IMG/VR virus record: IMGVR_UViG_3300044655_001510
DNA length: 64,000 nt
Source: an uncultured virus (IMG/VR IMGVR_UViG_3300044655_001510)
Taxonomy: Duplodnaviria; Heunggongvirae; Uroviricota; Caudoviricetes
Reading direction: 5' to 3' (one strand)
Within the stretch, counting starts at the first letter, position 1, and each line of letters opens with the position of its first letter. A program made the translations under genes and the position numbers. Below the pieces are notes generated by a model, which saw only the letters and a list, made by a program, of their open reading frames with translations, had not been told where the DNA came from and did no database searches. Below are positions 14,396 through 40,260 of the stretch, piece by piece.

Positions 14396-14716
14396 TCAAG
14401 AGATTATTCTACATGGTTTTGTTAATCTGCGATATTCCTTGCCCTCTGTGCTGTAGATAATACCCCGATCACAGTGAACCCACGCGGTATCTTGTTGATC
14501 TTCATTTTCGGTTGAAGTCCAACAGAAATGTACAGGTAACGCGATATCAAACTCACGAACACCAGCATACTCAGAACTGGCAGTCCATTCAGCAAATTCT
14601 TCGAATGTAGGTAAACGCCAGCCAGTCATACCATCTACATTCAAGGCAAAGCAATAGACCTTGGCATCCCACCAATTTAAGTATATACAATATTCTTCAG
14701 GGGCGAATTCAATCAT
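14396..14716 (-). CDS. Minimal DUF1566/Lcl-C-like (CLec) domain protein
   Basis: EFAP..AKVYCFALNVDGMTGWRLPT..WTS..PCR. Confidence 0.8.
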   Translation of the reverse strand: MIEFAPEEYCIYLNWWDAKVYCFALNVDGMTGWRLPTFEEFAEWTASSEYAGVREFDIALPVHFCWTSTENEDQQDTAWVHCDRGIIYSTEGKEYRRLTKPCRIIS

Positions 14717-14723
14717 GGGTTGT

Positions 14724-14751
14724 ATTATAACTAAAAGATCAGGGATGTCAA
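14724..14751 (-). promoter_or_regulatory. Sigma70-type promoter with CTAAAAGAT motif in spacer
   Basis: TTGACA-16-TATAAT; ATG only 7 nt after the -10 box (leaderless). Confidence 0.7.
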
Positions 14752-14835
14752 TATATTATTTTTGTGGAATTGGTGAGATGCGAGCACCGCTAGGCTCGAG
14801 CCATAAATACACCATACCAATATGAGAGTAACTAA

Positions 14836-15426
14836 ATGAGAATATCCGAGTTTGTAACAGAAAATACAGTTGAATTATCAAAAGAGCCAGGAACCATGAG
14901 TTTGTGGCATGGTGGAAACTTAACCAGCGACTTAGTCTTAATTCCACAAAAGACTGGTAGATTTGAATACGGTGCTGGTTTATACGCAACTACGCATTAC
15001 GATACTGCCAGAAAATACAGTAAAGGTTCACGTAAACTATATAAGATTACGTTAAGACAAGGCACAGATGCAAATAAATCATATGTTGAACTGGATAAGG
15101 CACTTGGGTTTGTTAACCAATTTGTAACTAAAGCAAAGCGTAAAGAAATTATGCAACAGCTTGAGAAGTACAATAAAAATAACATGATACCAGCGTATGT
15201 ATTCAACAACGTCATCTTAAACGAAAAAGCAATTAAGGCAACCGATACAGTTAATTTAAGTCGGTTCTTTGTTGATAACGGTATCGATTATCTACTCGTA
15301 CCAAATGCATTCGGATGGGGTGAAATGATGGTAGTTATTTTCAACTTACAGAAAATCTCAGACGTGCAACAGATCAAACCAACCGATACGATTGTTGACT
15401 ACGATTTACCAGTAAACTTTAATTAA
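14836..15426 (+). CDS. Putative ADP-ribosyltransferase-fold internal head protein
   Basis: MRISEFVTE N-terminus; LWHGG..GAGLYAT..ARKY motifs; TAAATA upstream. Confidence 0.55.
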   Translation: MRISEFVTENTVELSKEPGTMSLWHGGNLTSDLVLIPQKTGRFEYGAGLYATTHYDTARKYSKGSRKLYKITLRQGTDANKSYVELDKALGFVNQFVTKAKRKEIMQQLEKYNKNNMIPAYVFNNVILNEKAIKATDTVNLSRFFVDNGIDYLLVPNAFGWGEMMVVIFNLQKISDVQQIKPTDTIVDYDLPVNFN

Positions 15427-15455
15427 AAAAGGCACCCGTATCGGTGCCTTATCTT

Positions 15456-15638
15456 TTAGATTACCGAAGCGTAACGAAAAACTTCTTTAGCAGAAAGGTA
15501 TTTACCTTGCAATGGGTCGTAGTAAACAACCTTATCTTGTTTATCTCTGAATGGTCCTTCCATTCCGGTTACAGAACCATATCCATCAATTAGCGATGAT
15601 TTCTTAACATCACGATGTTTAGTATAATGTACGGTCAT
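15456..15638 (-). CDS. Hypothetical phage protein
   Basis: GMEGPF..YYDP..GKYL motif. Confidence 0.6.
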   Translation of the reverse strand: MTVHYTKHRDVKKSSLIDGYGSVTGMEGPFRDKQDKVVYYDPLQGKYLSAKEVFRYASVI

Positions 15639-16420
15639 AAGTCAAAATACCTCATTTGAAAATTACGGTGACTTGGTTCGTGAGGATACCCACGAGGGTT
15701 TGTAATAACGTGGCAGTCACCATGGACCACGTCTAATCCAGAATGCATATGTCCATAAATGAAATAATCAATCCCTTCCATGTATTCGGTCAAATCCGAC
15801 GAGAACAATCCGTTCATGTGGTATTGGTCTTTGTATATTGGATTGATAGTCGCATGTGAAGGTGAATGATGACTCACAACAACTGTCCGGTTCTTAGTAG
15901 TATTTAAGAACTTGTCCAATCCAATCAAGTATTGTTTGTGTAGTTTTAATGCAGTGCTAGGTAAGAACTTACCAGTGCCTTCTTTTATAACACGGAAGTC
16001 CATTAAAGTCTTTGGTGCTAGTAACATGGTTTGTGGATCTTCTCGATTGAAGTCAGTCCAGCACGTACCACCATAAAAATCAATACCTTCTAAGGTAATC
16101 GATTCACAATCTAAAACATGGATATTGGTATACTCAGCCAATGCGCGTTTTAAGTTACCAATACAATTATATTGGGATCCATACAATGAATGATTCCCAG
16201 CAATATAAATGACATGCTTGTACTTAAACGAAATAATCTCGAAAAAGTCAACAAAATCAGTACTAGTAGGATCTGGGTGATTCTGTTGGAATATTAGACT
16301 CGCAGTAGGAACAATATCACCAGCTAATACTAAAATGCTATTTGGAATCGGATGTATAATCCCGTAATCCAATTGGCGATGTTCTAAATGTAAATCTGAT
16401 GCGTAGTATATTCTAGTCAT
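15635..16420 (-). CDS. Calcineurin-like metallophosphoesterase
   Basis: SDLHLE, LAGDI, AGNH, HHSP, GHMH, NPRGY. Confidence 0.9.
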   Translation of the reverse strand: MTRIYYASDLHLEHRQLDYGIIHPIPNSILVLAGDIVPTASLIFQQNHPDPTSTDFVDFFEIISFKYKHVIYIAGNHSLYGSQYNCIGNLKRALAEYTNIHVLDCESITLEGIDFYGGTCWTDFNREDPQTMLLAPKTLMDFRVIKEGTGKFLPSTALKLHKQYLIGLDKFLNTTKNRTVVVSHHSPSHATINPIYKDQYHMNGLFSSDLTEYMEGIDYFIYGHMHSGLDVVHGDCHVITNPRGYPHEPSHRNFQMRYFDL

Positions 16421-16617
16421 TTTCGTACAAAGTAAGCAATTATGTGTGTGAATACAATAATAGATAATAGGTAACCAAACTCATACCAGTGTTTGGTAGG
16501 AATGTTGTAGTGCTGGATTTGATCAATAACCGTGGTTAACATCCATGCTAAACCGTAAGTGAGTGCGACGTAAATTAAGAATTTCATACCGGTATTTAGG
16601 TGGCACTCGCGATTGAT

Positions 16618-16833
16618 TCAACCATCTTTTAGATCTCGCACTGGGACTACTGGCCACATTCTACCACAATTATTTGCCGGGTCGCCTTGATACCAGCATG
16701 CACCAACTGATTCCTGATTAGCGTAGTATTCCGCTTGTGTTGGTAACCGCCAACCATCACCTAAACAAAAACAATACAAAACTGCCTCGTCATAACTTAT
16801 GCCAAATTCTGATGCTTTTCCGATTTCAATCAT
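16618..16833 (-). CDS. Minimal DUF1566/Lcl-C-like domain protein (array 1)
   Basis: MIEIG..YCFCLGDGWRLPT..PVRDLK. Confidence 0.85.
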   Translation of the reverse strand: MIEIGKASEFGISYDEAVLYCFCLGDGWRLPTQAEYYANQESVGACWYQGDPANNCGRMWPVVPVRDLKDG

Positions 16834-17062
16834 CTTTTAGATCTCGTACTGGGATTACTCGATATTTTTTAGTCTCACTGTCATCACGGACTTCACCATA
16901 CCAATATTTCCACGTATTCGTGTAACCAACGATAATGCGTATTTCGTCATACGTCGGTAATCTCCAACCAACATCACCTTCAATATTAAGTGAGAAACAA
17001 TAGAAGATTGCTTCCGCCCACGTCAACTCTGCTTCGTATTCTTTTGGTGCTAGTTCAATCAT
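16826..17062 (-). CDS. Minimal DUF1566/Lcl-C-like domain protein (array 1)
   Basis: Family motifs; 8-nt ATGATTGA overlap. Confidence 0.85.
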   Translation of the reverse strand: MIELAPKEYEAELTWAEAIFYCFSLNIEGDVGWRLPTYDEIRIIVGYTNTWKYWYGEVRDDSETKKYRVIPVRDLKDD

Positions 17063-17288
17063 CTTTTAGATCTCGTACTGGGATAATAGTTCCAAGATTA
17101 GTTAATCGATCACTTCGTTCACCTGGACCGTCAGCATACCAACCGTATATGTTTCTGTTATTGAAAAATTCTTTTTGCGTTGGTAATCTCCAACCAACCT
17201 TACCATCTATATTCAAAGAAAAACAATATAACTTGGCATCCGTATACGTTAATTTTTTGTGATATTCAACAGGTGCTACTTCAATCAT
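17055..17288 (-). CDS. Minimal DUF1566/Lcl-C-like domain protein (array 1)
   Basis: Family motifs; 8-nt overlap. Confidence 0.85.
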   Translation of the reverse strand: MIEVAPVEYHKKLTYTDAKLYCFSLNIDGKVGWRLPTQKEFFNNRNIYGWYADGPGERSDRLTNLGTIIPVRDLKDD

Positions 17289-17532
17289 CTGTTAGATCTC
17301 GTACTGGGATTAACCAATATTTAATTTTATGTGAAATGTTATCAACCGTGTCATTAGAATTCCACATCCCACGAATGCCATGAACTCTTACAACTCGAGT
17401 TTCTTCTAGGGTTGGAATTCGCCAATCCCGTTTACCATCAATGTCCAATAACATAAGATAAAGTCGAAGATTAGTCACCTCGGTTTCTATCCAGTACTCT
17501 TCAGGTGCTACTTCGAGTCTTGGTTCAATCAT
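17281..17532 (-). CDS. Minimal DUF1566/Lcl-C-like domain protein (array 1)
   Basis: Family motifs; 8-nt overlap. Confidence 0.85.
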   Translation of the reverse strand: MIEPRLEVAPEEYWIETEVTNLRLYLMLLDIDGKRDWRIPTLEETRVVRVHGIRGMWNSNDTVDNISHKIKYWLIPVRDLTDD

Positions 17533-17734
17533 CTTTTAGATCTCGTACTGGAGTTACATGCAACGTATGATGATGCATACTAGCACGTTCGTCATAGCAC
17601 CAGTCTGCATACATGGTATGCGTATGGTACTCGTTGATCGATGGTAATCTCCAGCCATCACCTAGACAAAAACAGTAGAATACTGCATCCTCATATGTCA
17701 TCTCACATTCTGATCTTTTACCTATTTCAATCAT
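17525..17734 (-). CDS. Minimal DUF1566/Lcl-C-like domain protein (array 1)
   Basis: Family motifs; 8-nt overlap. Confidence 0.85.
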   Translation of the reverse strand: MIEIGKRSECEMTYEDAVFYCFCLGDGWRLPSINEYHTHTMYADWCYDERASMHHHTLHVTPVRDLKDD

Positions 17735-17939
17735 CTTTTAGATCTCGTACTGGAGTTACCGGCCAAAGACTAACTCCATGACGCAGAAAGTCGTCTTTTA
17801 ACCAACCAATGTGTCCTGGTATGTAACGCGCGGATTCCCCTTCAGTTGGTAATCTCCAGTCATCACCTAGACAAAAACAGTAAAATACGGCATCGGCGTA
17901 GGTCATTCTTGAATTTGTAGTTTCACCTATCTCAATCAT
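17727..17939 (-). CDS. Minimal DUF1566/Lcl-C-like domain protein (array 1)
   Basis: Family motifs; 8-nt overlap. Confidence 0.85.
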   Translation of the reverse strand: MIEIGETTNSRMTYADAVFYCFCLGDDWRLPTEGESARYIPGHIGWLKDDFLRHGVSLWPVTPVRDLKDD

Positions 17940-18193
17940 CTTTTAGATCTCGTACTGGAATAATAACAAGTTCAGGTTCTCCCTGATCCTCAATATAACA
18001 AAGTTCATCTGAAAACCAATAATTACCCATCCAATGGTTTGGGTCACTTGCATCATACACGTAATAAATCCATTCGTCGCTGGTAGGCAATCTCCAACCA
18101 ATCTTATCATCAATCTTCAAAACAAACAAGTACAAATCGATATTGTGGATGGTCGATTTTTTTCCAATACTCTTCCGGTGCTATCTCAATCAT
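17932..18193 (-). pseudogene. Minimal DUF1566-like gene frameshifted at an A7 run
   Basis: MIEIAPEEYW start at 18193 is 1 nt out of frame with LYLFV..WRLPT..PVRDLKDD; A6 restores the frame. Confidence 0.7.
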
Positions 18194-18458
18194 CTTTTAT
18201 ATCTCGTACTGGGATTAACAAAAACTTGGATCCAACTCGAGTATACCATTCTTCATCCAACGAATCTGCGGTAGTCCAAGGTTCTCGACTGTGAGATATA
18301 TCATTTGTGGGAGGGATTTCATTAATCCAAACATGCAGATCATAATCACTTGGTAATCTCCAATCCTGTTTGCCATCAATCGTCAAAACAAACAAATACA
18401 GCTTGATTTCTTGCCACGTACATTCAACCCAGTATTCTTCAGGTGCTATCTCAATCAT
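18186..18458 (-). CDS. Minimal DUF1566/Lcl-C-like domain protein (array 1)
   Basis: Family motifs; near-duplicate of the next gene. Confidence 0.85.
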   Translation of the reverse strand: MIEIAPEEYWVECTWQEIKLYLFVLTIDGKQDWRLPSDYDLHVWINEIPPTNDISHSREPWTTADSLDEEWYTRVGSKFLLIPVRDIKDD

Positions 18459-18708
18459 CTTTTATATCTCGTACTGGGATTAACAAAAACTTGGATCCAA
18501 CTCGAGTATACCATTCTTCATCCAAAGTATCCGTAATTGTCCATCGTTCAGCCTTGATATTCGGTATGCTAACAAACCAATCCTCTTGTTCCTCTTCGGT
18601 TGGTAATCTCCAATCCTGCTTACCATCAATAGTCAATACAAACAAATACAGCTTGATTTCTTGAAACGTACATTCAATCCAGTATTCTTCAGGTGCTAGT
18701 TCAATCAT
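18451..18708 (-). CDS. Minimal DUF1566/Lcl-C-like domain protein (array 1)
   Basis: Family motifs. Confidence 0.85.
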   Translation of the reverse strand: MIELAPEEYWIECTFQEIKLYLFVLTIDGKQDWRLPTEEEQEDWFVSIPNIKAERWTITDTLDEEWYTRVGSKFLLIPVRDIKDD

Positions 18709-18919
18709 CTTTTAAATCTCGTACTGGCATGACTCTATAAACATCAGAACGATTCCGCCATGGATCATCTTGATACCAACCCAGTAAATTGTGGTTTTCG
18801 AATTCGTCAGCTGTTGACAATCTCCATCCATCACCTAAACAAAAGCAATACATAACCGCCTCGTCATAGGTCATTTTGAATGTTGATCGTTCACCGATTT
18901 CAATTTTTGGTTTAATCAT
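18701..18919 (-). CDS. Minimal DUF1566/Lcl-C-like domain protein (array 1)
   Basis: Family motifs. Confidence 0.85.
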   Translation of the reverse strand: MIKPKIEIGERSTFKMTYDEAVMYCFCLGDGWRLSTADEFENHNLLGWYQDDPWRNRSDVYRVMPVRDLKDD

Positions 18920-19127
18920 ATTTTAAGTCTCGTACTGGGATTACATGCCAACATAGATTACGGTTAGTTTGGTCATTAAAGTTCCAAACAAAGTCTACAT
19001 TGCCGTCGAATTCTTCAATGGTTGGTAATCTCCAGCCAATCTTACCATTAACGTTTAATGAAAAACAATACATAACCGCCTCGTCGTATGTCATTCTTGC
19101 ATCTGTTGTTTCACCTATCTCAATCAT
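18912..19127 (-). CDS. Minimal DUF1566/Lcl-C-like domain protein (array 1)
   Basis: Family motifs. Confidence 0.85.
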   Translation of the reverse strand: MIEIGETTDARMTYDEAVMYCFSLNVNGKIGWRLPTIEEFDGNVDFVWNFNDQTNRNLCWHVIPVRDLKYD

Positions 19128-19434
19128 CTTTTAGATCTCGTACTGGTCTAACTAAGTTATCGTCATAACCCTTATTCTCAGGCGATGACTTGTAATCCAT
19201 ACCTTGTCGATTAAAATCTACATCAATAGCATACCCAATGTCACCTTCTTCACATGACCAGTAATACCATCTAGCAAAATCGCATCCGGGCATAGCCCAG
19301 ATACTATTCAACTCCTTAACAGTTGGCAACCTCCAACCAGTTTTACCATCTATGTTGAGAGCAAAACAATACAAACGGGCATCATCCCAGCTTGATCGTA
19401 TTTCATACTCTTTTGGTGCTATCTCAATGTTCAT
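19120..19434 (-). CDS. DUF1566/Lcl-C-like domain protein (array 1)
   Basis: SWDDARLYCFALNIDGKTGWRLPTVKEL..YYWS..VRPVR. Confidence 0.85.
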   Translation of the reverse strand: MNIEIAPKEYEIRSSWDDARLYCFALNIDGKTGWRLPTVKELNSIWAMPGCDFARWYYWSCEEGDIGYAIDVDFNRQGMDYKSSPENKGYDDNLVRPVRDLKDD

Positions 19435-22331: not shown

Positions 22332-22607
22332 CTATTCTAAATCACGAACAGGGTGCACACCTAATTGATAATCATTCACACCGAACCTAGTACTGAATGG
22401 TGACAAATACTTGATGTGGTTGTTGGCGGTAACTTCAGACGACCAGTAATTTCCGGGTTCGATCAATCCTCGACCTAGCATCACATGTAGTTCAGCGATC
22501 GTAGGTAATCTCCAACCGGTCTTACCCCCAATATTAAGAGCAAAACAGAACAATCGGGCTTCGTCCCAAGTTGCCTTAATCCAAACTGGTGCTATTTCGA
22601 ATTTCAT
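22332..22607 (-). CDS. DUF1566/Lcl-C-like domain protein
   Basis: Family motifs, NYWSS. Confidence 0.85.
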   Translation of the reverse strand: MKFEIAPVWIKATWDEARLFCFALNIGGKTGWRLPTIAELHVMLGRGLIEPGNYWSSEVTANNHIKYLSPFSTRFGVNDYQLGVHPVRDLE

Positions 22608-22948
22608 GATAAATCCCTTACTGCTCTGACTGTGAATCGATTGAACTTCGGGTGTTGTCCTGACAATTGATTCATGAAATTAAATCCAAACGCAGTGACT
22701 GTGGAATCCCATGTAGTGGCAGTAGATGACCAATAGTATAGATAGTCAAAATCATTGGCAGTAGATGACCAATAGTGTAGATATTCAAAATCATACTCAT
22801 TGGGAGCGTCGTAAATATTCTGTAATTCAAAAATTGACGGTAATCTCCAACCCGTTTTACCATCGATATTAAGAGAGAAACAGAACAATCGTGCATCATC
22901 CCAGTTGGCTTGGATCTCAGTTGATTTAGGTGCTATTTCGAATTTCAT
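22604..22948 (-). CDS. DUF1566/Lcl-C-like domain protein with internal 13-aa duplication
   Basis: APKSTE..WRLPS..(YWSSTA)x2..VRAVR. Confidence 0.85.
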   Translation of the reverse strand: MKFEIAPKSTEIQANWDDARLFCFSLNIDGKTGWRLPSIFELQNIYDAPNEYDFEYLHYWSSTANDFDYLYYWSSTATTWDSTVTAFGFNFMNQLSGQHPKFNRFTVRAVRDLS

Positions 22949-22978
22949 AGTGTTAACTGCTTTTGTTAAGATTCTAGT

Positions 22979-23006
22979 AGTATAAACGGATTTTCTGAAA
23001 TGTCAA
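22979..23006 (-). promoter_or_regulatory. Sigma70-type promoter
   Basis: TTGACA-16-TATACT upstream of 22948. Confidence 0.7.
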
Positions 23007-23070
23007 GTGGTTAATTGCTCGCCACTAGCGTGGCTCGCGATAATATCAATCAACCTAGGTTAATTATCTT

Positions 23071-23862
23071 TTAGTATGGGAATTCAGTTTTATTTGCGTA
23101 GGTTGGGCGGTAAGCAATAACAAAACCACCTACTTGGATTAGCTGTTCTGCTGCTACAATAGGTTGCATATTGTTTCTGTCATAGAAGTAAGCGTGACGT
23201 TCTGGATCCATACCAACTTGTTTCCAAGCTGGATTTTTCATTGCTTTTTCTGCATAGGCTTTTGCTTGCTCGGAACTCATTGGTACCCAATTACCTTTCA
23301 TCACAGCGATTGTACCTTTTTCATTTCCTTTGGCGATCTTCATTGCTGCGTTTGGATGTACACCTAGGGTTGCATTAGTTATGATTGCGGTTGAAGTATA
23401 GGCTATTGGTGTTCCAGCATCCCAACCTTTCTTTTGTTCGTGAACAGCAACCACCCAAGTATCTTTATCACGGTAAGATGGGATATCTAATCTTAATCCA
23501 ACTGGGTATCCTTTTGGTAGCAATTCCATCGGATCTTTTACTTTTTCAGTTTTGTCTTTTGTTATTACATCTTTGATTTTTTCAATAGCTGCATACATAG
23601 GAACTTCTTCATATGGGTAAACGGCTTTGACTTTGTTGACAAGTTGATCGTATTCTTGTTTAGACATTTCACCTGCTTCAACCTTTTTAATTGCGGCTTG
23701 TAGGTCTTTAGACCGTTTGGTTACATCCTTATAATGCATTGCTTGTCTGGATGTACCTTTCTCTGGTGCTGGTTGAAATTCTGGTTCGGTATTGAACGAG
23801 AGTATGTCAGCAGTTTTGGTATCGGTTTTTTTTATTGCTTCAACGATTTCGTGAATTCGCAT
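23071..23862 (-). CDS. Putative internal head protein (MRIHEIVE N-terminus)
   Basis: 263 aa; TAAATA upstream; VGLRLDIP and QVGMDPERHAYFYD motifs. Confidence 0.7.
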   Translation of the reverse strand: MRIHEIVEAIKKTDTKTADILSFNTEPEFQPAPEKGTSRQAMHYKDVTKRSKDLQAAIKKVEAGEMSKQEYDQLVNKVKAVYPYEEVPMYAAIEKIKDVITKDKTEKVKDPMELLPKGYPVGLRLDIPSYRDKDTWVVAVHEQKKGWDAGTPIAYTSTAIITNATLGVHPNAAMKIAKGNEKGTIAVMKGNWVPMSSEQAKAYAEKAMKNPAWKQVGMDPERHAYFYDRNNMQPIVAAEQLIQVGGFVIAYRPTYANKTEFPY

Positions 23863-23992
23863 TGGGTAACTCCTTTGGCGTATTGGTATATTTAGTGGTT
23901 GGTATTGTAGTTTTGTTTGGTCGGGTTGTCAAGTGGTTATTGTTGTGGATTTTGTTTGGTAGCGAGCACCGCTAGGTGCGAGCCATATAACA

Positions 23993-24018
23993 GAAAACCC
24001 ACTTTAGGGTGGGTTTTC
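23993..24018. terminator. Hairpin downstream of the VR-like gene (terminator and/or DGR-type target hairpin)
   Basis: GAAAACCCAC-6nt-GTGGGTTTTC, 22 nt after stop at 24041. Confidence 0.6.
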
Positions 24019-24040
24019 AATATTACGTTACAAAAAAAGC

Positions 24041-24581
24041 CTAAATGGTTGATCGCCGGGTGGCTCTAACGACGCGGTAGATGTCGTTCTTCTTGATGTT
24101 GCTCTGGTTGCCATTGCTTAAATTCTGCATCCAGACGTCAACGTCATTGTACTCAGTAGAGGACAAGTAGTAGTTACCAACACCAGTACCGAACGCATTA
24201 GCGGTGGCGAATGGAGTTGCTGATTTATTTGAATACATGGTAAGTAATTCGTTTTTAGCTGGTAGGTACCAGGTACTATAACCACCGGTGGTTAATGATT
24301 TTGCGTAATAAGCCGCTGGGTGCGCGGCAGAACCAAAACTATGTAGGGTTGTGGTATTATCTACGCCATTGGTGGTACTGGTGGTGCTACGAACTGTTCC
24401 ATAACTACCCCATGTTTTTCCTACTTCAGTCGATTTAGGTGCTACGTATAAATTAAAGTTTCCACTGGCACCGAGGCAATAACCTTTTGTGGAAGAACCA
24501 GAACCAATTGGTACATTAGGCCAAGCAGGACCCCCCCCCCGATACCTGGGTTCGTCTATGAAATTTTTGTAAACTACTCAT
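24041..24581 (-). pseudogene. Full-length DUF1566/CLec DGR-target-like protein interrupted by G10 tract (possibly phase variable)
   Basis: ATG at 24581 with AGGAG RBS; G10 (24531-24540) gives a stop after 21 aa; G9 gives a 179-aa ORF ..VAPKSTE..AKSLTTGGYSTWYLPAKNEL..YYLSSTEY..VRATRR. Confidence 0.8.
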
Positions 24582-24735
24582 TTTACTTCTCCTTTTATAA
24601 TATATACTTGTATTTACCGAGTTTTTGACAATCCACTATCAATATAACTGTAAAATATGAGCATCCAGCATACACTTAAGCTCGTCACTTCGTTCCTCGC
24701 AACAACTCAATATATAATAAGGAGTAAACTAACGG

Positions 24736-24763
24736 TTGACATTCTGATTTTATACAGTATACT
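24736..24763 (+). promoter_or_regulatory. Sigma70-type promoter
   Basis: TTGACA-16-TATACT upstream of 24794. Confidence 0.7.
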
Positions 24764-24793
24764 ACCGGTAATTTAATCAAGCAGGAACATAAT

Positions 24794-25084
24794 ATGAACA
24801 TTGAAATAGCACCAACGGTGATAACAGCTAACTGGGACGATGCCAGGTTGTATTGTTTTTCTCTTAATGTTGATGGTAAAACTGGATGGAGATTACCAAC
24901 CAGATTGGAATTACTCGAAATATATCAGTCTGGTAGATATGTACGATTAAATTTTTGGTGTTGGTCTGCTACTGAGTACAATGATGTTGGAGCTTGGGTT
25001 AAACTATTTGGAAATGGTAGAGACGATGTCCGTCTTAAAGAGACCAGCCACGGTCTAGTTATGGCTGTGAGGGATTTGGTATGA
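24794..25084 (+). CDS. DUF1566/Lcl-C-like domain protein
   Basis: Family motifs, CWSATEYN. Confidence 0.85.
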   Translation: MNIEIAPTVITANWDDARLYCFSLNVDGKTGWRLPTRLELLEIYQSGRYVRLNFWCWSATEYNDVGAWVKLFGNGRDDVRLKETSHGLVMAVRDLV

Positions 25085-25398
25085 ACATTGAAATAGCACC
25101 AGAAGAATATCGAAAATACGAGTTGACGTGGGATGAAGCAAAGATGTATTGTTTTAGTCTTAATATAGATGGTAAGGTTGGATGGAGATTACCAACAATT
25201 GACGAACTGATAGGCATTCGTGATACGTTTTACTTAGACTTTAATGACCCATCAGTTTGGGTGTGGACTATTGAATGTACCGACGATGATCAGGCGACTC
25301 AAGTTGATTTAACTGATTTTGAGACGTTGACGTATTACAAAACCGATGGTGATTCGGTTTGGGCTTATCCTGTGAGGGATGTATGTACTTTGAAATAG
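25081..25398 (+). CDS. DUF1566/Lcl-C-like domain protein
   Basis: Family motifs. Confidence 0.85.
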   Translation: MNIEIAPEEYRKYELTWDEAKMYCFSLNIDGKVGWRLPTIDELIGIRDTFYLDFNDPSVWVWTIECTDDDQATQVDLTDFETLTYYKTDGDSVWAYPVRDVCTLK

Positions 25399-25631
25399 CA
25401 CCCAAATCAACAGAGATAGAAGCCACTTTGGGTGAAGCTAGGATGTATTGCTTTTCTCTTAATATAGATGGTAAAGTTGGATGGAGATTACCTACAGGAG
25501 AAGAACTAAACGAGATTTACGAATCAGAAAATGAGTATGCAACCACTTGGTATCATTGGACTGCAGACGATGATGTGGAGAGTGATGGCAGACTTTATGT
25601 TAGACCTATTCGAGATCTAAAAGATAATTGA
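25383..25631 (+). CDS. Minimal DUF1566/Lcl-C-like domain protein
   Basis: Start MYFEIAPKSTE. Confidence 0.85.
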   Translation: MYFEIAPKSTEIEATLGEARMYCFSLNIDGKVGWRLPTGEELNEIYESENEYATTWYHWTADDDVESDGRLYVRPIRDLKDN

Positions 25632-25720
25632 ACCATTTTGATACCTCGTGAGCAATAAAACACTTGACAACCTAGACTAACTACAGTAAACTTGCTGCAA
25701 CATTAACAGAGGAGTGCAAT

Positions 25721-26101
25721 ATGATTACCGAAGAATTACGCACATATATTGACATGGTTGCCACGGAATGGGAATCAGATCAGTTGTACGAGATGGCCAA
25801 TGTATTCCCAAAACGGCATGGTATAGAGAATGTTGTCATTTGGGTTGGTAAGGCTCCGAAGCAGCATGGCTTACGAGTAAAGGTTTCTAACATACCAAAC
25901 AAAATGAGCATGCCGGATAGCTTCGTAATCATGATTCCAAGTTTGGATTACGACCCACTGCAAGTAGCGGATTGGATTACTACTAAAACAATGAATCGAA
26001 TACTTGATTGGATTAAACTGAATCAAGCCTTGTTAAATGACTATGAAACCGGTATCCTTGATGATACTGAGTTGTTTTTAAACAATATATCTAAGGTATG
26101 A
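25721..26101 (+). CDS. Hypothetical phage protein
   Basis: GAGGAG RBS; EMAN..GIENVVIWVG..HGLRVKVSN. Confidence 0.75.
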   Translation: MITEELRTYIDMVATEWESDQLYEMANVFPKRHGIENVVIWVGKAPKQHGLRVKVSNIPNKMSMPDSFVIMIPSLDYDPLQVADWITTKTMNRILDWIKLNQALLNDYETGILDDTELFLNNISKV

Positions 26102-26493
26102 ATATGGAAAACGAACACACCGATTTCAACTTTGATTTAGAACGTATGAAAGAGGCAGTTGAATCAAAAACAGTTTCAATTCCAGTAGCGGCATTGGAAA
26201 ATTTCGAGGCATTTGATGCTTGGCTTAATACAGAAGAAAACGGGTATAGCAAACTAAGAAGTCGATTACCAAATCCATTTGCAGTTGATTATCAGCACGA
26301 ATCTGGTCCACTAGACATATACACTGAAGTTGAAATGATGAAGTTTGCTGAATCAATTATCAAGGAAGCTGTGAAAGTTCTCGACGACTATAGTGAATCA
26401 CTTGATTGCGGTACTGACTACAAAAATGGATATAGTCACGGATTTGAATGGGCTATCAACGTATTAGAAAATCACTTTGGAGTTAAATCATGA
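26098..26493 (+). CDS. Hypothetical protein
   Basis: Coupled ORF. Confidence 0.65.
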   Translation: MNMENEHTDFNFDLERMKEAVESKTVSIPVAALENFEAFDAWLNTEENGYSKLRSRLPNPFAVDYQHESGPLDIYTEVEMMKFAESIIKEAVKVLDDYSESLDCGTDYKNGYSHGFEWAINVLENHFGVKS

Positions 26494-26891
26494 ATCATTC
26501 TGCTATCTTCAACCTAGTTGAAGAAATTGACAAGCCAACCAAAGCATCCGAAATGATGGAATACTCTAATTCTTATTACAGACAAATGAATCCTAGGGAA
26601 TGGGATATTCCATTTGCTGATAAGGACATTCAATATGTAAAACTGTTCGAGAAATTGGATTGTACTGAAAGAGAAAAAGACATCGCGTTTATTTCTAATT
26701 TCTTCCATTCAGTATACGTTACTCTACATGTAACGATTCTTGCTTTAGGCGAACGACCTAGTCCTAGTGCAATTGATGATTTAAACAGAACCTTTGTGAC
26801 TTTACAAAGATTAGATGCAGTAGAAACATTACTGAATGGTAAGATTACAACTGAAGAACTTTATCGAATTATTGGAGAGTTGACAAAATGA
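26490..26891 (+). CDS. Hypothetical protein
   Basis: Coupled ORF. Confidence 0.65.
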   Translation: MNHSAIFNLVEEIDKPTKASEMMEYSNSYYRQMNPREWDIPFADKDIQYVKLFEKLDCTEREKDIAFISNFFHSVYVTLHVTILALGERPSPSAIDDLNRTFVTLQRLDAVETLLNGKITTEELYRIIGELTK

Positions 26892-27057
26892 ACGAACAGA
26901 TTAAACAAGCAGCATTAAACGCAGCAAATGCGATCGCAGATGATTTCGTAGTGGGTTTCTGTGACCATCGAATGGTTGAGCACTTTGCTGCTCATATTGA
27001 AAAACATATTGCACTGTTGGTTGAATCAATAACCAACGAACAGTTCGGAGTTGAGCA

Positions 27058-27315
27058 ATGAATGGTAGAATCAAAGAACTGTTGTATCAGGCCAACTTAC
27101 TCGATGACGATGGTTGGAGTACAAGCAACTTGACAAGGGATGTAGAGCAGTTTGCGCAGTTGGTTATCCAAGAATGTATTGATCAAATAGAATCCTATCA
27201 AATTCCTGTTGGTAATAGTCCTGCTGGTGAACTAGCCAGTGAATGGACATACGATGCGTTATCTACAATTAGAGATAACATTAAAGAACATTTAGGGATC
27301 AAGCCATGCGAGTAG
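27058..27315 (+). CDS. Hypothetical phage protein (MNxRIKEL..FAQLVIQEC type)
   Basis: Coupled ORF. Confidence 0.7.
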   Translation: MNGRIKELLYQANLLDDDGWSTSNLTRDVEQFAQLVIQECIDQIESYQIPVGNSPAGELASEWTYDALSTIRDNIKEHLGIKPCE

Positions 27316-27752
27316 TAAAAGGTGATCTAATACAATTGGCATTACAACAACGATTTGATGTGATCGTGCATGGTTGTAATTGCTTCAATAATATGGGTGG
27401 TGGGATTGCAAGACAACTTGCAATTCGGTGGCCTGAAGTAGCAGTAGTTGACCGTGATACAAACATGGGAGACAAGAACAAACTTGGTACTTTTACAATC
27501 GCAGAAACTCCTGTGTGTAAAGTTGTGAATGCGTATACACAGTATCACTACGGACAAGCCACTGGTCCGCATTTCGATTATGCCGCATTTGGTTTAGTAC
27601 TTGAAAACTTAGAAAAACGATTTAGTCCAGAAACTAAGTTTGGATTCCCATTAATCGGTTGTGGACTGGCTGGTGGTGACGAGATCCGTATTTTACGCAT
27701 GATCAAAGAATGGTCAACGTTTAGGGACGTTACTGTTGTTCGCTTTGACTAA
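27306..27752 (+). CDS. Macrodomain protein (T4 Tk.4-like)
   Basis: GDL, HGCNCFNNMGGGIA, NAYTQ, PLIGCGLAGG. Confidence 0.9.
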   Translation: MRVVKGDLIQLALQQRFDVIVHGCNCFNNMGGGIARQLAIRWPEVAVVDRDTNMGDKNKLGTFTIAETPVCKVVNAYTQYHYGQATGPHFDYAAFGLVLENLEKRFSPETKFGFPLIGCGLAGGDEIRILRMIKEWSTFRDVTVVRFD

Positions 27753-27768
27753 AAGATAATAGACTAAT

Positions 27769-28062
27769 ATGAACTTTGAAATAGCACCTAAATCCACTGA
27801 GAGTCAATTAACATGGGATGATGCCCGTTTGTATTGTTTTGCTCTCAATATTGATGGTAAGACCGGTTGGCGTTTACCCACTAAAGCAGAGCTAGTTGAG
27901 ATATTTCAGTCGGCAAATGACTTTAGGGGATTTTGGTACTGGTCATCTACTGAGTACAATGGCAAGAATGTATGGGTTCAAACATTCAACAATGGTTTTC
28001 AAAGTCTACTCGGGAAATACGATAACGTCTCATACGTTAGAGCCATTAGGGATTTATCATGA
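27769..28062 (+). CDS. DUF1566/Lcl-C-like domain protein with VR-like C-terminus
   Basis: WYWSSTEYN..W.Q.FNNG.Q..YVRAIR. Confidence 0.9.
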   Translation: MNFEIAPKSTESQLTWDDARLYCFALNIDGKTGWRLPTKAELVEIFQSANDFRGFWYWSSTEYNGKNVWVQTFNNGFQSLLGKYDNVSYVRAIRDLS

Positions 28063-28370
28063 AATACGAAATAGCACCTAAATCCACTGAAACGAAACTC
28101 AATTGGAATGATGCCAGATTATATTGCTTCTCTCTTAATATCGATGGTAAGACTGGATGGAGATTACCGACCAAGGACGAATTGAACGAAATATACGAAT
28201 CAGAAAATGATTTTGAAAACCGTTGGTACTGGTCCTCTACTGAGTACGATGACAGATACGCCTGGGGTCAGCAGGCTTGGAGTCAGGATTTGGGTCAGTA
28301 TGGCAAGGGCATCGATGGTAAAAACGGCGTCAACTACGTTAGAGCCATTCGAGATCTAAAAGATAATTGA
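28059..28370 (+). CDS. DUF1566/Lcl-C-like domain protein with VR-like C-terminus
   Basis: WYWSSTEYD..AW..NYVRAIR. Confidence 0.9.
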   Translation: MKYEIAPKSTETKLNWNDARLYCFSLNIDGKTGWRLPTKDELNEIYESENDFENRWYWSSTEYDDRYAWGQQAWSQDLGQYGKGIDGKNGVNYVRAIRDLKDN

Positions 28371-28479
28371 ACCACACGATTGCGAGCACCGCTAGGTGCG
28401 AGCCAATAACAAAAACACTTGACAACCTAGACTAACTACTATATACTCCACCCAACATTAACCACAACGGAAAATTAAA

Positions 28480-29799
28480 ATGAGAACACAACCACAAGAC
28501 ATTATCAAACAATTAGAAAGTGACAACAGCAGATTGGTTAAAGAAGCAGTACTAGCCGATGCAATGAAAGAAGAACTTGACGAGTTTTTCGAAGGTGTTA
28601 AGTTAGCATTGGATAACTTAATTGTATTTGGTGTGAAGCAAGTACCCGTAAAAGAAGAAGATGCTGGTCAAGGATTGCCTTGGACTGCGTTTGTTGAAAT
28701 GGCTGATGCCTTAAGATTCCGAACTATTACAGGTAATGAAGCAAAGGATGCCATTAAGTTAGCGATGGATGTTGCCACCCAAGACCAGTGGAATAACTGG
28801 TATCGTAGAATCTTAATTAAAGATTTACGTTGTGGTGTTACCGAGAAAACAGTTAATACAGTTGCTAAGAAAGCGAAAAAACCACAGTACAAAGTTCCTG
28901 TATTTGATGTTCAACTGGCAACTGATGGGTTGAAACACGATGCTAAGATGGTTGGTAAGAAGATCCTCCAGGAGAAGCTAGACGGCACGCGTTGTATAAC
29001 GATTGTAGACTACGAAGCACGTGAAATAACACAATACACTCGTAATGGAAAAGAGTTAGTTAATTTCCCACATGTAACAGAAGCCTTACTAAAACACATA
29101 GATGACTTTGGTCGTAGTTATGTATTAGATGGTGAAATCATGAGTGAGAACTTTCAAGCACTTATGAAGCAACTTAATAGAAAATCGGATGTTAAAACTG
29201 AAGATGCTTATCTTAATGTATTTGACATTATGCCATTGGTAGAGTTTAAAGCTGGTATTAGTGAAATGGGACAACGTCGCAGACTTAACTTTTTAAACTC
29301 ATTCAAAGGCATACTAGAAGATACTGGTTGCATCAAAGTATTACCTTGGATTGAAGTAGACTTAGATACCTTTATTGGTGAAATGGAATTCAAAGACTTT
29401 AATCAAAAATGCTTAGATGAAGGCTTTGAAGGTATTATGGTTAAAGACCCAGATGCAAAGTATGAATGTAAACGTGGAACTTCTTGGTTGAAAATCAAAC
29501 CATTTATTACAGTTGACTTAGCCATTGTTGGATTTGAAGAAGGTACTGGTAAAAACGAAGGTCGTTTAGGAGCTATCATCTGTGAAGGTGAAGATGATGG
29601 TAGATTGATTTCAGTTAATGTCGGTGGTGGATTTACTGATGAAGAACGTACTTCTAACTGGGCTTGTAAAGATAATATGCTTGGTCAAGTAGTAGAAGTT
29701 CGTGCCGATGCAGTTTCACAAAATCAAGATGGTACTTTTAGTTTACGTTTTCCACGATTCATTAGATTCCGTGGATTTTCAAGAGGTGAAAAAATCTAA
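28480..29799 (+). CDS. lig: ATP-dependent DNA ligase
   Basis: EKLDG motif I, VLDGE, FD, EGIMVK, WLKIK, SLRFPRF. Confidence 0.95.
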   Translation: MRTQPQDIIKQLESDNSRLVKEAVLADAMKEELDEFFEGVKLALDNLIVFGVKQVPVKEEDAGQGLPWTAFVEMADALRFRTITGNEAKDAIKLAMDVATQDQWNNWYRRILIKDLRCGVTEKTVNTVAKKAKKPQYKVPVFDVQLATDGLKHDAKMVGKKILQEKLDGTRCITIVDYEAREITQYTRNGKELVNFPHVTEALLKHIDDFGRSYVLDGEIMSENFQALMKQLNRKSDVKTEDAYLNVFDIMPLVEFKAGISEMGQRRRLNFLNSFKGILEDTGCIKVLPWIEVDLDTFIGEMEFKDFNQKCLDEGFEGIMVKDPDAKYECKRGTSWLKIKPFITVDLAIVGFEEGTGKNEGRLGAIICEGEDDGRLISVNVGGGFTDEERTSNWACKDNMLGQVVEVRADAVSQNQDGTFSLRFPRFIRFRGFSRGEKI

Positions 29800-30178: not shown

Positions 30179-30394
30179 ATGAAAGAATATCACATTAGAT
30201 TTAACACGAAGCACAACAACGAAACTCCGCTAGTATGGCGTGTGTTTGAAGATGGCGTTGAGAATTTGGTTAAATCGTTAAATATTACAGTACCAGTTAC
30301 TGATTCAGCTACAGTTGAGTATGGAGAAACAAAATGGAATATTTGTTGTAAGGGTACTATGACTATCATCGATGACGTTGCTCATATCAAATGA
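30179..30394 (+). CDS. Hypothetical phage protein
   Basis: MKEYHIRFN..WRVFE..KWNICC. Confidence 0.7.
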   Translation: MKEYHIRFNTKHNNETPLVWRVFEDGVENLVKSLNITVPVTDSATVEYGETKWNICCKGTMTIIDDVAHIK

Positions 30395-30627
30395 AACTAG
30401 AATTTACGCCAACCGAATATCAACAGGTAATGTCGTACAGTGATGCTAAACTCTATTGTTTTTCTTTGAATATTGATGGTAAGACTGGTTGGCGATTACC
30501 AACAATGATTGAATTGGGTGAGTTGTACAAGCAAACTAATGATAGTATGTGGTGTTTAGCTTATTGCGAATCTGACCACGATGAGTTTAATAGACTTTGT
30601 TGGCCAGTAAGAGAGATGGGTGCATAG
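30391..30627 (+). CDS. Minimal DUF1566/Lcl-C-like domain protein
   Basis: Family motifs. Confidence 0.85.
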   Translation: MKLEFTPTEYQQVMSYSDAKLYCFSLNIDGKTGWRLPTMIELGELYKQTNDSMWCLAYCESDHDEFNRLCWPVREMGA

Positions 30628-39066: not shown

Positions 39067-39174
39067 AGCCACATCGTCACTGAGACGAGAAACCTAAAAG
39101 AAACTACTTGACAACATCATCTTTTAGATTTAAACTACAACCTTAACATTAACTTTTTCAAAAGCGAGATTACA

Positions 39175-40260
39175 ATGAGCACAGATATCAGCACACGTTT
39201 AGTTGGCCCTAAAGCAGCAAAAAAAGCAATTCAACACTCAATCAAAAAACGCCGTCCTATTTTTGTCTGGGGCGCACCAGGAATTGGTAAGTCGGATCTG
39301 GTCAAACAAATCGGTCAAGAACAACACCGTGAAGTTATTGACATCCGTTTAGCTTTATGGGAACCTACCGATATCAAAGGTATTCCTTACTATAACCAAG
39401 AAGCTAAAACCATGCTATGGGCAGAACCTGCTGAATTACCTAGTGATCCAGAATCAACTGCAATTCTCTTCTTAGACGAATTAAACTCAGCACCACCAGC
39501 AGTTCAAGCCGCTGCTTACCAACTTATCTTAAACCGTAGAGTAGGTAACTATGTCTTACCAGACGGTGTAGATATCGTAGCAGCTGGTAACCGTGATGGC
39601 GATAGAGGTGTAACATTCCGTATGCCAAGTCCTCTAGCAAATCGATTTGTACATTTAGAAACTACCACGGATTTCGATGACTGGCAAGAATGGGCAATCC
39701 AAAACCAAATCCATCCAGAAGTTATTGGTTACTTGGGTTTTGCTAAACAAGACTTGTATGACTTTAAACCAGCAAGCTCTAGTAAAGCATTCGCTACACC
39801 ACGCTCTTGGTCTTTCGTATCTGAATTGCTAGATGATGAATCTACTATCGACAGCGAAACTTTACATACATTAGTTGCTGGTGCTATCGGTGATGGTCTA
39901 AGTATCAAGTTTATGGCTCATCGCAAAATCGCAGGTAAAATGCCAACTGCTGATGATATCTTAGATGGTAAAGTAACTAAGCTAGACGTTAAAGAAATCT
40001 CGGCTATGTACTCGTTGACTATTTCACTTTGCTACGAGTTAAAAGATCGTGCTGAAAAGAAAGCAGCCGGTTGGAATGACATGGCTAACAACTTCTTTAC
40101 TTATATGATGGCTAACTTCCCAACTGAATTAGTTGTGATGGGTGCAAGAACCGGATTGGTATCTTATAACTTACCATTCGATGCAACTAAAATGCCTTCA
40201 TTCCATCAGTTCTCTGAAAAATATGGCAAATTGATCATCCAAGCGATGTCAGATAAGTAA
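39175..40260 (+). CDS. MoxR/dynein-related AAA+ ATPase
   Basis: GAPGIGKS, LFLDELN, AAGNR, PLANRF, TPRSW. Confidence 0.9.
   Translation: MSTDISTRLVGPKAAKKAIQHSIKKRRPIFVWGAPGIGKSDLVKQIGQEQHREVIDIRLALWEPTDIKGIPYYNQEAKTMLWAEPAELPSDPESTAILFLDELNSAPPAVQAAAYQLILNRRVGNYVLPDGVDIVAAGNRDGDRGVTFRMPSPLANRFVHLETTTDFDDWQEWAIQNQIHPEVIGYLGFAKQDLYDFKPASSSKAFATPRSWSFVSELLDDESTIDSETLHTLVAGAIGDGLSIKFMAHRKIAGKMPTADDILDGKVTKLDVKEISAMYSLTISLCYELKDRAEKKAAGWNDMANNFFTYMMANFPTELVVMGARTGLVSYNLPFDATKMPSFHQFSEKYGKLIIQAMSDK

Follow-up and report, generated by a model that had tools for sequence, protein, structure and literature searches.

The long gene of the 64-kb stretch analysed here (the window) is probably an orphaned target of a diversity-generating retroelement (DGR), carried on a 737-bp cassette beside a separate expansion of the same fold in a lake jumbo phage. 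Its last 37 codons, the variable region (VR), would have been written earlier by a DGR in an ancestor or donor phage, and this tip would now be frozen, because the gene has no adjoining Avd, TR or RT. The single-gene cassette joins a shared 5' module to the body and a terminator; a G10 tract throws the body out of frame and would further gate or abolish expression of the gene. The neighbouring genes, which the original prediction had taken for further targets, represent a separate and very large expansion of the fold, with 31 mini-genes in the window.

Table 1. Features of the window and the basis on which each was delimited
Feature	Position	Strand	Basis or remark
Long Lcl_C/DUF1566 gene	24041..24581	minus	Pfam, frame listing, orthologues, AF2 model
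DGR-type VR, 37 codons, LSSTE...VRATR	24056..24166	minus	NNC footprint; colinear with verified VRs/TRs
G10 homopolymer (C10 on plus strand)	24531..24540	minus	Codons 14-17 of long gene
Single-gene cassette, 737 bp (hairpin repeat, terminator, long gene, 5' module)	23943..24679		Absent at same G001 site
Intrinsic-terminator-like hairpin	23993..24018	minus	23 nt 3' of long-gene stop
Intergenic hairpin repeat, 23 nt, GCGAGCACCGCTAGGTGCGAGCC	23962..23984	plus	Another copy at 28382-28404
Two tandem Lcl_C mini-genes (22604-22948 and 22332-22607)	22332..22948	minus	Pfam 51.9 and 30.2 bits
Lcl_C mini-gene, 96 aa	24794..25084	plus	Pfam 42.1 bits; first of three-gene tandem set
Lcl_C mini-gene, 105 aa	25081..25398	plus	Pfam E 7.8e-8, 33.1 bits, just below cut-off
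Lcl_C mini-gene, 82 aa	25383..25631	plus	Pfam E 5.7e-5, below cut-off; family motif and alignment
Lcl_C mini-gene, 97 aa	27769..28062	plus	Pfam 50.1 bits; both anchors and 33-codon span; absent from G001
Lcl_C mini-gene, 103 aa	28059..28370	plus	Pfam 49.3 bits; both anchors

The variable region and its relatives

The long gene matches the Pfam family Lcl_C (40.5 bits, E 3.9e-10; the cut-off is 34.9), and its DUF1566/Lcl_C domain overlaps the C-terminal VR, which places it in the DUF1566/CLec2 class. The AF2 model of the protein (pLDDT 87.3) has as its best PDB match the Lcl C-terminal domain (8q4e_A, E 2.2e-4). Profile and model together indicate a small lectin-fold (Lcl_C/DUF1566) binding protein, although its ligand is something we only infer.

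Within the VR, 19/37 codons carry C at codon position 3 (C3), against 34/137 elsewhere in the gene (Fisher p=0.0023) and a background of 16.6% in window ORFs of at least 150 aa (binomial p=1.2e-6). Of the relatives of the long gene, 121 were confirmed among viral and 132 among metagenome contigs, and the best 80 of each set were analysed (160 loci). Three of these 160 best relatives have a TR, and its mismatches to the VR are biased to A: 13/13, 15/17 and 20/21 of them fall on TR adenines. The three, lake-phage contigs L042, L059 and L097, carry both Avd and RT (in L042 in the order target-bAvd-TR-RT) and match the long protein by tblastn at 34-39% identity (E 1e-16, 4e-15 and 5e-19, respectively). 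Codon for codon, the VR of the long gene lines up with their VRs and TRs, and its variable codons coincide with the AAY codons of those TRs. Over 16 relatives compared, mean VR identity was 35% versus 80% in the remainder of the protein. Since L042, L059 and L097 hold true DGR targets with A-biased TR/VR mismatches, the last 37 codons of the long gene are supported as a DGR-type VR. We infer that this VR in particular was the work of a DGR; the strong C3 bias suggests that the writing took place not long ago, which counts against the orphan reading. In a match-or-A test over 227 loci the nearest sequences to the VR were the TRs of L042, L059 and L097, at 81-83/105 positions, and therefore none of them is the cognate TR.

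Linked retroelement parts are scarce in the family: RT was seen in only 9/213 related loci and a TR in only 3/160, so that most members would seem to be orphans or to be served from a distance. Behind L095, the nearest stand-alone orthologue (61% identity), comes a DGR RT truncated at its N-terminus. This RT has 275 aa and 57% identity to L042 RT residues 110-363; the L095 locus has neither TR nor Avd. Differences between the L094 and L095 VRs fall 11, 11 and 1 on the three codon positions over 25 codons, compared with 36, 27 and 66 over the other 147 codons of the gene, and from this pattern the subfamily appears to have been DGR-served. The third positions of the window VR diverge from both (7, 9 and 9 differences at the three codon positions in 25 codons).

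Could the tail owe nothing to a DGR? The long gene might have been acquired horizontally, with the NNC-rich tail reflecting foreign codon usage and the VR likeness common descent of a lectin scaffold. GC and C3 of the gene (45.4% and 25%, versus 38.6% and 16.6% in the window) fit such an origin, as do the absence of a cognate TR from every collection searched and the L095 paralogues, which differ through indels and not A-type changes. Nonetheless, we consider it very improbable: the VR has twice the C3 of the remaining gene, it is colinear with verified TRs and varies at their AAY codons, the best match-or-A sequences in 227 loci are exactly the verified DGR TRs, and a DGR RT remnant adjoins the closest orthologue.

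Retroelement parts, the cassette and the G10 tract

The claim that neither TR nor RT lies in the window was borne out by every search made. Pfam was run on 77 reading frames, namely 75 of the 76 stop-to-stop frames of at least 110 aa (all except the mini-gene at 53406-53795) and two shorter ones; among these, none matched RVT_1, bAvd or 23S_rRNA_IVP. Using the L042 and L095 RTs as tblastn queries gave only noise in the window at E<=10, with positive controls working in L097 and L059, and the L042 Avd found nothing there. As to a TR in the window, self-BLAST returned only matches of 21-27 nt, the top non-self match-or-A score was 89/120, and no stretch was AAY-rich (at most 9 AAY codons per 36, versus 14-16 in true TRs). 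Beyond the window, the top score was 83/105 over the 227 loci (1.84 Mb), and scanning IMG/VR for exact 41-mers produced 0 matches. No RT was found in G001, the closest relative (327-kb phage record), or in the 71.8 kb of G004, a second jumbo-phage contig with an orthologous cassette. Being without cassette as well as without RT, G001 says little about cassette-bearing genomes.

The cassette is an indel. Window positions 22962-23942 align to L093 10931-9921 and positions 24680-26495 to L093 9920-8093; both flanks are contiguous in L093, and therefore G001 has an empty site from which the cassette is missing. The neighbouring protein is 98% identical between the window phage and G001, and cassette GC is ~44-45% versus 36-40% in the flanks. 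The hairpins predicted at 23993 and 28382 both exist, yet their proposed role as DGR elements is not supported. The former (10-bp stem, 6-nt loop, T-rich tail; fold z-score -3.5) is terminator-like and recurs 3' of the G004 orthologue, and the latter belongs to a generic 23-nt repeat with 9 copies on both strands of the window, none of which arises in any of 100 shuffles. One variant of this repeat, at 53817, has a compensatory A/T swap in its stem.

Assembly depth was compared in X1, the likely source sequencing run, in the form of Logan contigs rather than reads. One contig of depth 34.4 covers 23991-24274 with 0 differences among those listed, in contigs from which rare variants are dropped; the contigs flanking it have depths of 29.9 and 35.3. 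Several other X1 contigs, at depths of 33-35, have the 5' module in common along with 24197-24237 and the positions up to 24071, yet they lack 24072-24196, nearly the exact extent of the VR, and summed depth is 182.8 over the 5' module versus ~35 elsewhere. This pattern could correspond to one genome holding multiple copies of the cassette that differ in their VRs, as expected of a multi-target DGR. One X3 contig stops at the 3' limit of the VR (24069).

Food for thought is whether an active DGR elsewhere in the ~330-kb genome rewrites the VR in trans, perhaps together with the VRs of other cassettes that share the 5' module, which would be the original prediction narrowed to the family of the long gene. 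The window extends 24 kb to one side of the long gene and 40 kb to the other, the remaining ~260 kb probably lying outside it, so that an RT and TR could sit beyond these 24-40 kb. The strong NNC footprint, the X1 contigs that share the VR flanks without the VR at genome-like depth (with ~5-fold depth over the 5' module) and the DGR-served appearance of L094/L095 would all agree with this, and the available text of Wu et al. (2018; PMC5758913) documents both trans action and non-adjacent DGR targets. Against it stand the lack of RT and TR in the window, in G004 and in G001, the X1 VR contig at full depth with 0 differences, third positions in the window VR that are not those of L094/L095, and the truncation of the RT adjoining the L095 orthologue. 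In phage-associated DGRs, moreover, the same part of Wu et al. (2018; PMC5758913) places nearly all non-adjacent targets within 50 kb of the RT. This evidence is indirect but points against a remote active DGR, which we regard as unlikely, and we would expect no DGR in the unseen remainder of the genome. An extended form is that lake jumbo phages keep exchangeable lectin-tip cassettes, whose tips are written in trans by a single distant DGR on dispersed copies. The exchanged module would comprise a shared promoter, ribosome-binding site, MSSLQKFHRRT leader and sometimes the G10 switch, along with a shared terminator. If true, retro-mutagenesis, cassette exchange and homopolymer phase switching would meet in one virus; we think this decidedly unlikely.

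Another question regards expression of the orphaned target. Described originally as full-length, the long gene turned out not to be an intact ORF. Its ATG (24581-24579, with an AAGGAG ribosome-binding site 5' of it) and its body (24577..24041, ending in the stop codon 24043-24041) are in different frames, the body being +1 relative to the ATG, and the two are joined at the G10 tract. Nine or 12 G would restore the frame. The leader MSSLQKFHRRT is identical in the L094, L095 and G004 orthologues; no G tract occurs in the first two, and the G004 orthologue has an identical G10 after the same 13 codons, for which 11 G would be in frame. The two genes are thus out of frame in opposite directions. 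The 5' coding region accordingly holds a simple-sequence tract whose length sets the frame, as in a contingency locus, and in both assemblies compared (assembled contigs of the window and G004) that length is 10 G. Rather than a pseudogene lesion or an assembly error, the tract may be a hypermutable phase-variation switch or slippage site in a living gene, with expression limited to some of the virions or infections. It is the sole G/C run of at least 6 within the 64 kb and sits early in a putative binding-protein gene, the independent G004 contig keeps it although the bodies are only 60% identical, X1 contigs end at or beside it, and phage polyG tracts are said to have a precedent in print (Sorensen et al., 2021, Cell Rep 35:109214). 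Still, one programmed frameshift cannot serve opposite errors (9 G here, 11 in G004), ten G is a length prone to short-read assembly error, and the L094 and L095 orthologues do without the tract. A phase switch is therefore possible, if somewhat doubtful.

The Lcl_C mini-genes

Besides the long gene, the window holds 31 Lcl_C mini-genes, and G001 has 59 Lcl_C matches in its 327 kb. The mini-proteins consist of the stand-alone domain (67-128 aa); Pfam placed 4 of 7 above the cut-off (42.1-51.9 bits) and 3 below it (23.8-33.1). For the product of gene 27769, the AF2 model has a pLDDT of 95.4 and its best Foldseek match is again 8q4e_A (TM 0.83, 30% identity, E 1.9e-6). A sigma-70-like promoter at 24736-24763, matching at 11/12 positions, precedes the tandem set that begins with gene 24794.

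The sequence likeness that had suggested shared targets is real. Anchor TCTACTGAGTAC occurs three times (24149-24160 on the minus strand, 27946-27957 and 28236-28247), as does anchor GTTAGAGCCA (24061-24070 on the minus strand, 28036-28045 and 28338-28347), and for each 0/100 shuffles reach three. The equal 33-codon span likewise held, TCT to GCC measuring 99 nt in the long gene as in gene 27769; in gene 28059 it is 111 nt. Gene 24794 matches over 21 nt at 95%. The STEY and VRA anchors are conserved scaffold motifs of the Lcl_C domain.

The mode of change in the mini-genes differs from that of a DGR. Their tails lack the NNC bias of the long-gene VR, C3 being 10/40, 14/46, 6/42 and 11/55, about equal to the heads, so that the predicted bias holds for the long gene only. 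Differences among the mini-genes, and between them and the long-gene VR, showed no adenine specificity. In 13 orthologous pairs between the window and G001, differences by codon position were 28, 27 and 85 of 627 in constant parts and 30, 27 and 56 of 463 in variable parts, and lengths differ through indels. Gene 28059, for example, is separated from its G001 orthologue by a 15-nt indel and variable-loop substitutions that are not adenine-specific. Copy number shifts by unequal crossover, with whole genes gained or lost at repeated 5' ends: in G001, deletion or fusion at these repeats among the tandem genes has removed gene 27769. Elsewhere conservation is uneven, gene 24794 being ~70% identical to the G001 gene at the same position and the next gene ~100% (gene 25081 has 99% aa identity to its orthologue). 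Tandem duplication and unequal crossover, together with indels and ordinary substitution, account for the diversity of the mini-genes. Lacking NNC bias, and changing by indels, mostly third-position substitutions and unequal crossover, they are not supported as DGR targets; diversification of multiple targets thus narrows to the DGR-type VR of the long gene, and the proposal that a DGR seeded the mini-gene family is likewise unsupported.

Comparison with known systems

The canonical phage DGR cassette is mtd-avd-TR-brt of Bordetella phage BPP-1. Like BPP-1 and L042, L059 and L097, the long gene is a lectin-fold target with its VR in the last ~37 codons, and it has the scaffold residues W..Q..G.Q...K...VRA.R in common with its relatives. 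It differs in that Avd, TR and RT are all missing from its surroundings, for 24 kb in one direction and 40 kb in the other. The canonical hairpin, moreover, is in L042 and L059 a stop-overlapping 6-bp stem with a 4-nt loop, whereas that of the long gene looks like a terminator and lies 23 nt past its stop. In Legionella pneumophila Lcl, the C-terminal domain ends a collagen-like adhesin. This domain (PDB 8q4e) is the best structural match of both the long- and mini-protein models, but in the window phage it stands alone and in dozens of copies. Hypermutable polyG tracts reportedly occur in Campylobacter phage genes (Sorensen et al., 2021); the long gene too has a G run in the 5' coding part of a putative binding protein, although host and phage lineage are unrelated and the tract is here known at one length only.

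In the available text of Wu et al. (2018; PMC5758913), DUF1566/DUF823/Fib_succ_major proteins form the 'category d' DGR targets with CLec2 VRs, such as Legionella LdtA, and about half of them are short domain-only proteins. The long gene shares with this category a Pfam family that overlaps the VR and a short domain-only product. LdtA, as described there, is a surface lipoprotein, whereas the long protein shows no lipobox or signal peptide by eye, and the long gene differs further in being phage-borne and without a linked DGR. As for the mini-genes, Iyer et al. (2021; PMC7824862) describe ~35 zinc-ribbon copies in Bacillus phage G as a lineage-specific expansion, and the accessible part of their survey of 224 jumbo phages reports no FGS-type C-type-lectin domains. 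Phage G, as portrayed there, likewise has a small domain at dozens of copies in one jumbo phage, but the mini-genes are C-type-lectin-like and reach the numbers given above for the window and G001.

The variable tip of the long Lcl_C gene

The long gene carries a Lcl_C/DUF1566 domain above the Pfam cut-off (E 3.9e-10), and the AlphaFold model of its product (pLDDT 87.3) lies closest to the C-terminal domain of Legionella Lcl. Relatives were confirmed in viral contigs (121) and metagenome contigs (132), and the best 80 of each set were kept for analysis. They are mostly 215-240 aa long and, across 16 of them, mean identity is 80% in the body and 35% in the last ~30 residues, a variable stretch framed by the invariant motifs YWSSTE, W.Q.F, G.Q, K and YVRAVRR. 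A template repeat (TR) lies ~650 bp downstream in 3 of 160 loci, with TR/VR mismatches falling on TR adenines in 13/13, 15/17 and 20/21 cases; at one of the loci with such a pair (L042), the gene order is target-bAvd-TR-RT. Given these adenine-biased pairs and this gene order, the family consists of genuine DGR targets and falls in the DUF1566 'category d' class of Wu et al. (2018; PMC5758913).

Every sequence element listed in the original prediction is present in the window. Three copies of the 12-mer anchor and three of the 10-mer were found, at the long gene and mini-genes 27769 and 28059 as had been reported (none of 100 shuffles reaches three), and the long gene and gene 27769 have the same anchor-to-anchor span of 99 nt. 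In the variable region (VR) of the long gene the NNC bias is significant: 19 of 37 codons end in C, compared with 34/137 in its remainder (p=0.0023) and 16.6% across long ORFs of the window (p=1.2e-6). The bias is confined to this gene; in the four mini-gene tails tested the share of C-ending codons (14-30%) is about that of their own heads. Codon by codon, the VR is colinear with the TRs of the three loci, its variable codons standing opposite AAC or AAT. These TRs also rank top in the adenine-only test, giving the best match-or-A scores among 227 loci; at only 81-83/105, however, none of them is the cognate template. From these alignments we conclude that the VR signature predicted for the long gene is real.

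The gene is nonetheless not intact, although it had been described as full-length. Its ATG (24581-24579), preceded by an AAGGAG site, begins a reading frame with its stop at 24516, while the Lcl_C body (24577..24041) is in the +1 frame relative to it, the two meeting at a tract of ten G (G10). This is the sole G/C run of at least 6 nt in the 64 kb. The orthologue on a second jumbo-phage contig (G004) has the same G10 after the same codons, even though its body is only 60% identical. Reading through in frame would take 9 (or 12) G in the window and 11 (or 8) in G004, and both assemblies show 10; these opposite needs at equal length argue against a single programmed ribosomal frameshift. A hypermutable tract caught 'off' twice fits the data, as does short-read error at a long homopolymer. 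Switching by polyG tracts reportedly has precedent in phages, and a frame-breaking G10 in two diverged orthologues is possibly a phage contingency switch.

Features of the window and of related loci
Feature	Location	Strand	Remark
G10 tract	24531-24540 (G004 copy: L228 9977-9986)	-	codons 14-17 of the long gene
23-nt hairpin repeat, nine copies	14780, 22217, 23962, 28382, 30082, 30129, 43858, 51634, 53817	both	intergenic
DGR RT, N-terminally truncated, 275 aa	L095 8227-9054	-	convergent with the closest orthologue of the long gene, 92 nt downstream of it
Mini-genes	14396-19434, 22332-22948, 24794-25631, 27769-28370, 30391-30627, 51699-64000		
TnpB/IS605 OrfB gene	58823-60124	-	Cas12f-like TNB domain; within the phage genome
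Caspase-like Peptidase_C14 gene	48801-49574	-	
MoxR-type AAA ATPase, then DUF2201 metallopeptidase/VWA gene	39112-43803	+	
Tail-fibre-like protein, Mtd_N head	3-1967	-	three tandem ~48-aa C-terminal repeats; cut by the window edge
Tail-fibre-like protein, Mtd_N head	5862-6947	-	collagen repeat

A single-gene cassette and the proposed source of its tip

The long gene lies on a discrete block of DNA. Window segments 22962-23942 and 24680-26495 align to directly adjoining DNA in the close relative G001, making 23943-24679 a 737-bp indel. It holds a copy of the hairpin repeat, a terminator, the long gene and a 5' module, and its GC content is ~45% compared with 36-40% in the flanks. The next 400 bp (gene 24794) share only ~70% identity with G001 and the following gene ~100%, thus marking a recombinant block. 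On G004 (71.8 kb, an estimated 20% of its genome, 38% GC, six Lcl_C matches) the orthologous cassette has the same 40 nt upstream, first 17 codons and terminator, and its flanks are unrelated.

Both hairpins that had been predicted as DGR-type elements downstream of the targets exist, although their nature differs: the one at 23993-24018 resembles an intrinsic terminator, and the one at 28382 is a copy of the nine-copy intergenic repeat. This repeat has a 5-bp stem and a GCTA loop, with a compensatory A/T stem swap in one copy, is also found in G004, and probably serves the phage in regulation or as a terminator.

The nearest stand-alone orthologues (61% identity) lie at two loci, L094 and L095, which hold three and at least six paralogues respectively, all starting MSSLQKFHRRT. 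The G10 tract is missing there, and most paralogues have instead a perfect palindrome of ~28 bp upstream, its 3' arm containing the ribosome-binding site; it could sequester that site, acting in translational control, or be a recombination site. The RT of L095 lacks its first ~105 residues, is 57% identical to that of L042 and retains the LPIGNLSSQ motif. With no TR or Avd found in L095, this locus looks like a decaying DGR; a TR search of L094 and L095 with each paralogue likewise found none. Differences between L094 and L095 by codon position are [11,11,1] over 25 VR codons and [36,27,66] over the other 147, which is the DGR pattern. Between the window and L094 the VR differences are [7,9,9], and the window VR therefore no longer follows the L094/L095 template.

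Where, then, is the retroelement? Within the 64-kb window there is no TR-like repeat (best non-self match-or-A score, 89/120), AAY codons reach at most 9 per 36 compared with 14-16 in true TRs, and neither Pfam nor tblastn, run with positive controls, detects an RT or Avd. RTs are also absent from the 71.8 kb of G004 and the 327 kb of G001, the latter being a weak point for an orphan since G001 lacks the cassette too. An exact 41-mer scan of IMG/VR (24197-24237) for a paralogue or TR gave 0 matches, and in a scan of GTDB genomes for a bacterial source or template the best match had 46% identity across residues 66-162, with a cognate TR again not found.

We call the long gene an orphaned DGR target. 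In the probable source metagenome (X1), a contig of depth 34.4, flanked by contigs at 29.9 and 35.3, spans 23991-24274 without a difference among those listed, as judged on contigs and not reads. Alternatively, an active trans-acting DGR elsewhere in the genome, which is large outside the 64 kb, could still serve the VR. Indeed, other X1 contigs at depth 33-35 match the window over the 5' module, 24197-24237 and the positions up to 24071, and not over 24072-24196, the summed depth over the 5' module is 182.8, and a contig from another run (X3) ends exactly at 24069. At the level of contigs, the X1 pattern is consistent with several copies of the cassette that differ in their tips, and we infer that the joints 24018->24531, 24071->24197 and 24237->24532, like the low depth over 24310-24520, reflect further such copies. 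Even so, we regard an active distant DGR as unlikely.

For the orphaned target, the protein would most likely be a small ligand-binding module with the VR as its binding face. Adenine mutagenesis may have diversified the VR in an ancestor or donor that carried a DGR, after which the gene would have moved as a cassette with its conserved 5' module and terminator; its tip would now be fixed and production of the protein would depend on the G tract. X1 contig depth drops to 3.85 over 24310-24520, between regions at ~35, and normal-depth contigs join 24237->24532 and 24294->24423. Here either most copies carry another allele or assembly breaks at the homopolymer.

The mini-gene family

The 64 kb hold 31 mini-gene reading frames of 67-128 aa (one of them truncated at the end of the window and another lacking a start codon) with the motif M.IEIAP...LYCFSLNIDGK.GWRLPT..E...VRDLKDD. 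They form tandem sets in which the stop codon of one gene often overlaps the start codon of the next, and sigma-70-like promoters precede some sets. Of seven submitted to Pfam, four exceed the Lcl_C cut-off and three fall under it. Modelled with a pLDDT of 95.4, the 27769 protein has a minimal C-type-lectin-like fold and matches 8q4e_A (TM 0.83). G001 has 59 Lcl_C matches, 27 of them over the cut-off.

The original prediction treated the mini-genes as further DGR targets, and this is not supported. Besides the lack of NNC bias in the four tails, 13 orthologous pairs with G001 differ at [28,27,85] positions over 627 codons in constant parts and [30,27,56] over 463 in variable parts; the dominance of third-position changes indicates ordinary divergence. 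Gene 27769 is missing in G001 (L093 about 6960); the breakpoint falls where two tandem genes repeat their first ~10 codons, a sign of unequal crossover. The G001 counterpart of 28059 differs by a 15-nt indel in the loop. On this evidence the anchors are domain motifs common by descent, and the family grows by duplication. The middle segment ranges from ~20 to ~65 residues, and the proteins may represent a repertoire of one fold with differing loops. No signal peptide was obvious by eye in the mini-proteins, and we take them to be putative intracellular or virion-associated binders.

The phage and known systems

The window (38.6% GC) encodes, by Pfam, Mtd_N-headed tail-fibre-like proteins, PAAR, ClpP, an ATP-dependent DNA ligase and a T4-type RNA ligase. 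The Mtd_N proteins were set aside as DGR targets, since their bodies are collagen-like or made of repeats and no CLec tail is visible (the window edge truncates the first). Among available records the nearest is G001, a viral contig of 327 kb with an estimated completeness of 92%, whose copy of the protein adjoining the finding is 98% identical. Among 50,697 deposited phage records, neither megablast of 23000-29000 nor tblastn of the long protein found a match, and the ligase reaches no more than 33% identity, to those of SPO1-like Bacillus phages, so that a cultured relative is absent. The runs containing the stretch carry the labels of lake-water or freshwater metagenomes; together with the size of G001 and the lack of close deposited phages, this makes the window part of an uncultured freshwater jumbo phage.

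To our knowledge, DGR surveys count a target solely where a TR and RT are nearby. The long gene and most of the ~200 relatives fetched suggest that DGR-written lectin tips whose retroelement is not in view are numerous in lake phages; such tips are either fossils or served from far away. Separating the two would alter estimates of ongoing versus frozen host-range variation in phages.

Searches of the literature on phage DUF1566 and on jumbo-phage C-type lectins and paralogues found neither the expansion nor the cassette described, although supplementary tables may list further cases. DUF1566 proteins are already known as DGR targets from one survey (PMC5758913), and another, covering 224 jumbo phages, reports no FGS-type C-type-lectin domains (PMC7824862). 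Mini-type proteins form 327 clusters, mostly of 95-100 aa and without a name or called DUF1566, some of them on contigs of 256-327 kb; only 2 of the 50,697 deposited phage records contain a match, in single copy each. The mini-domain in this jumbo phage is a very large lineage-specific expansion, in dozens of copies, of a minimal C-type-lectin-like fold.
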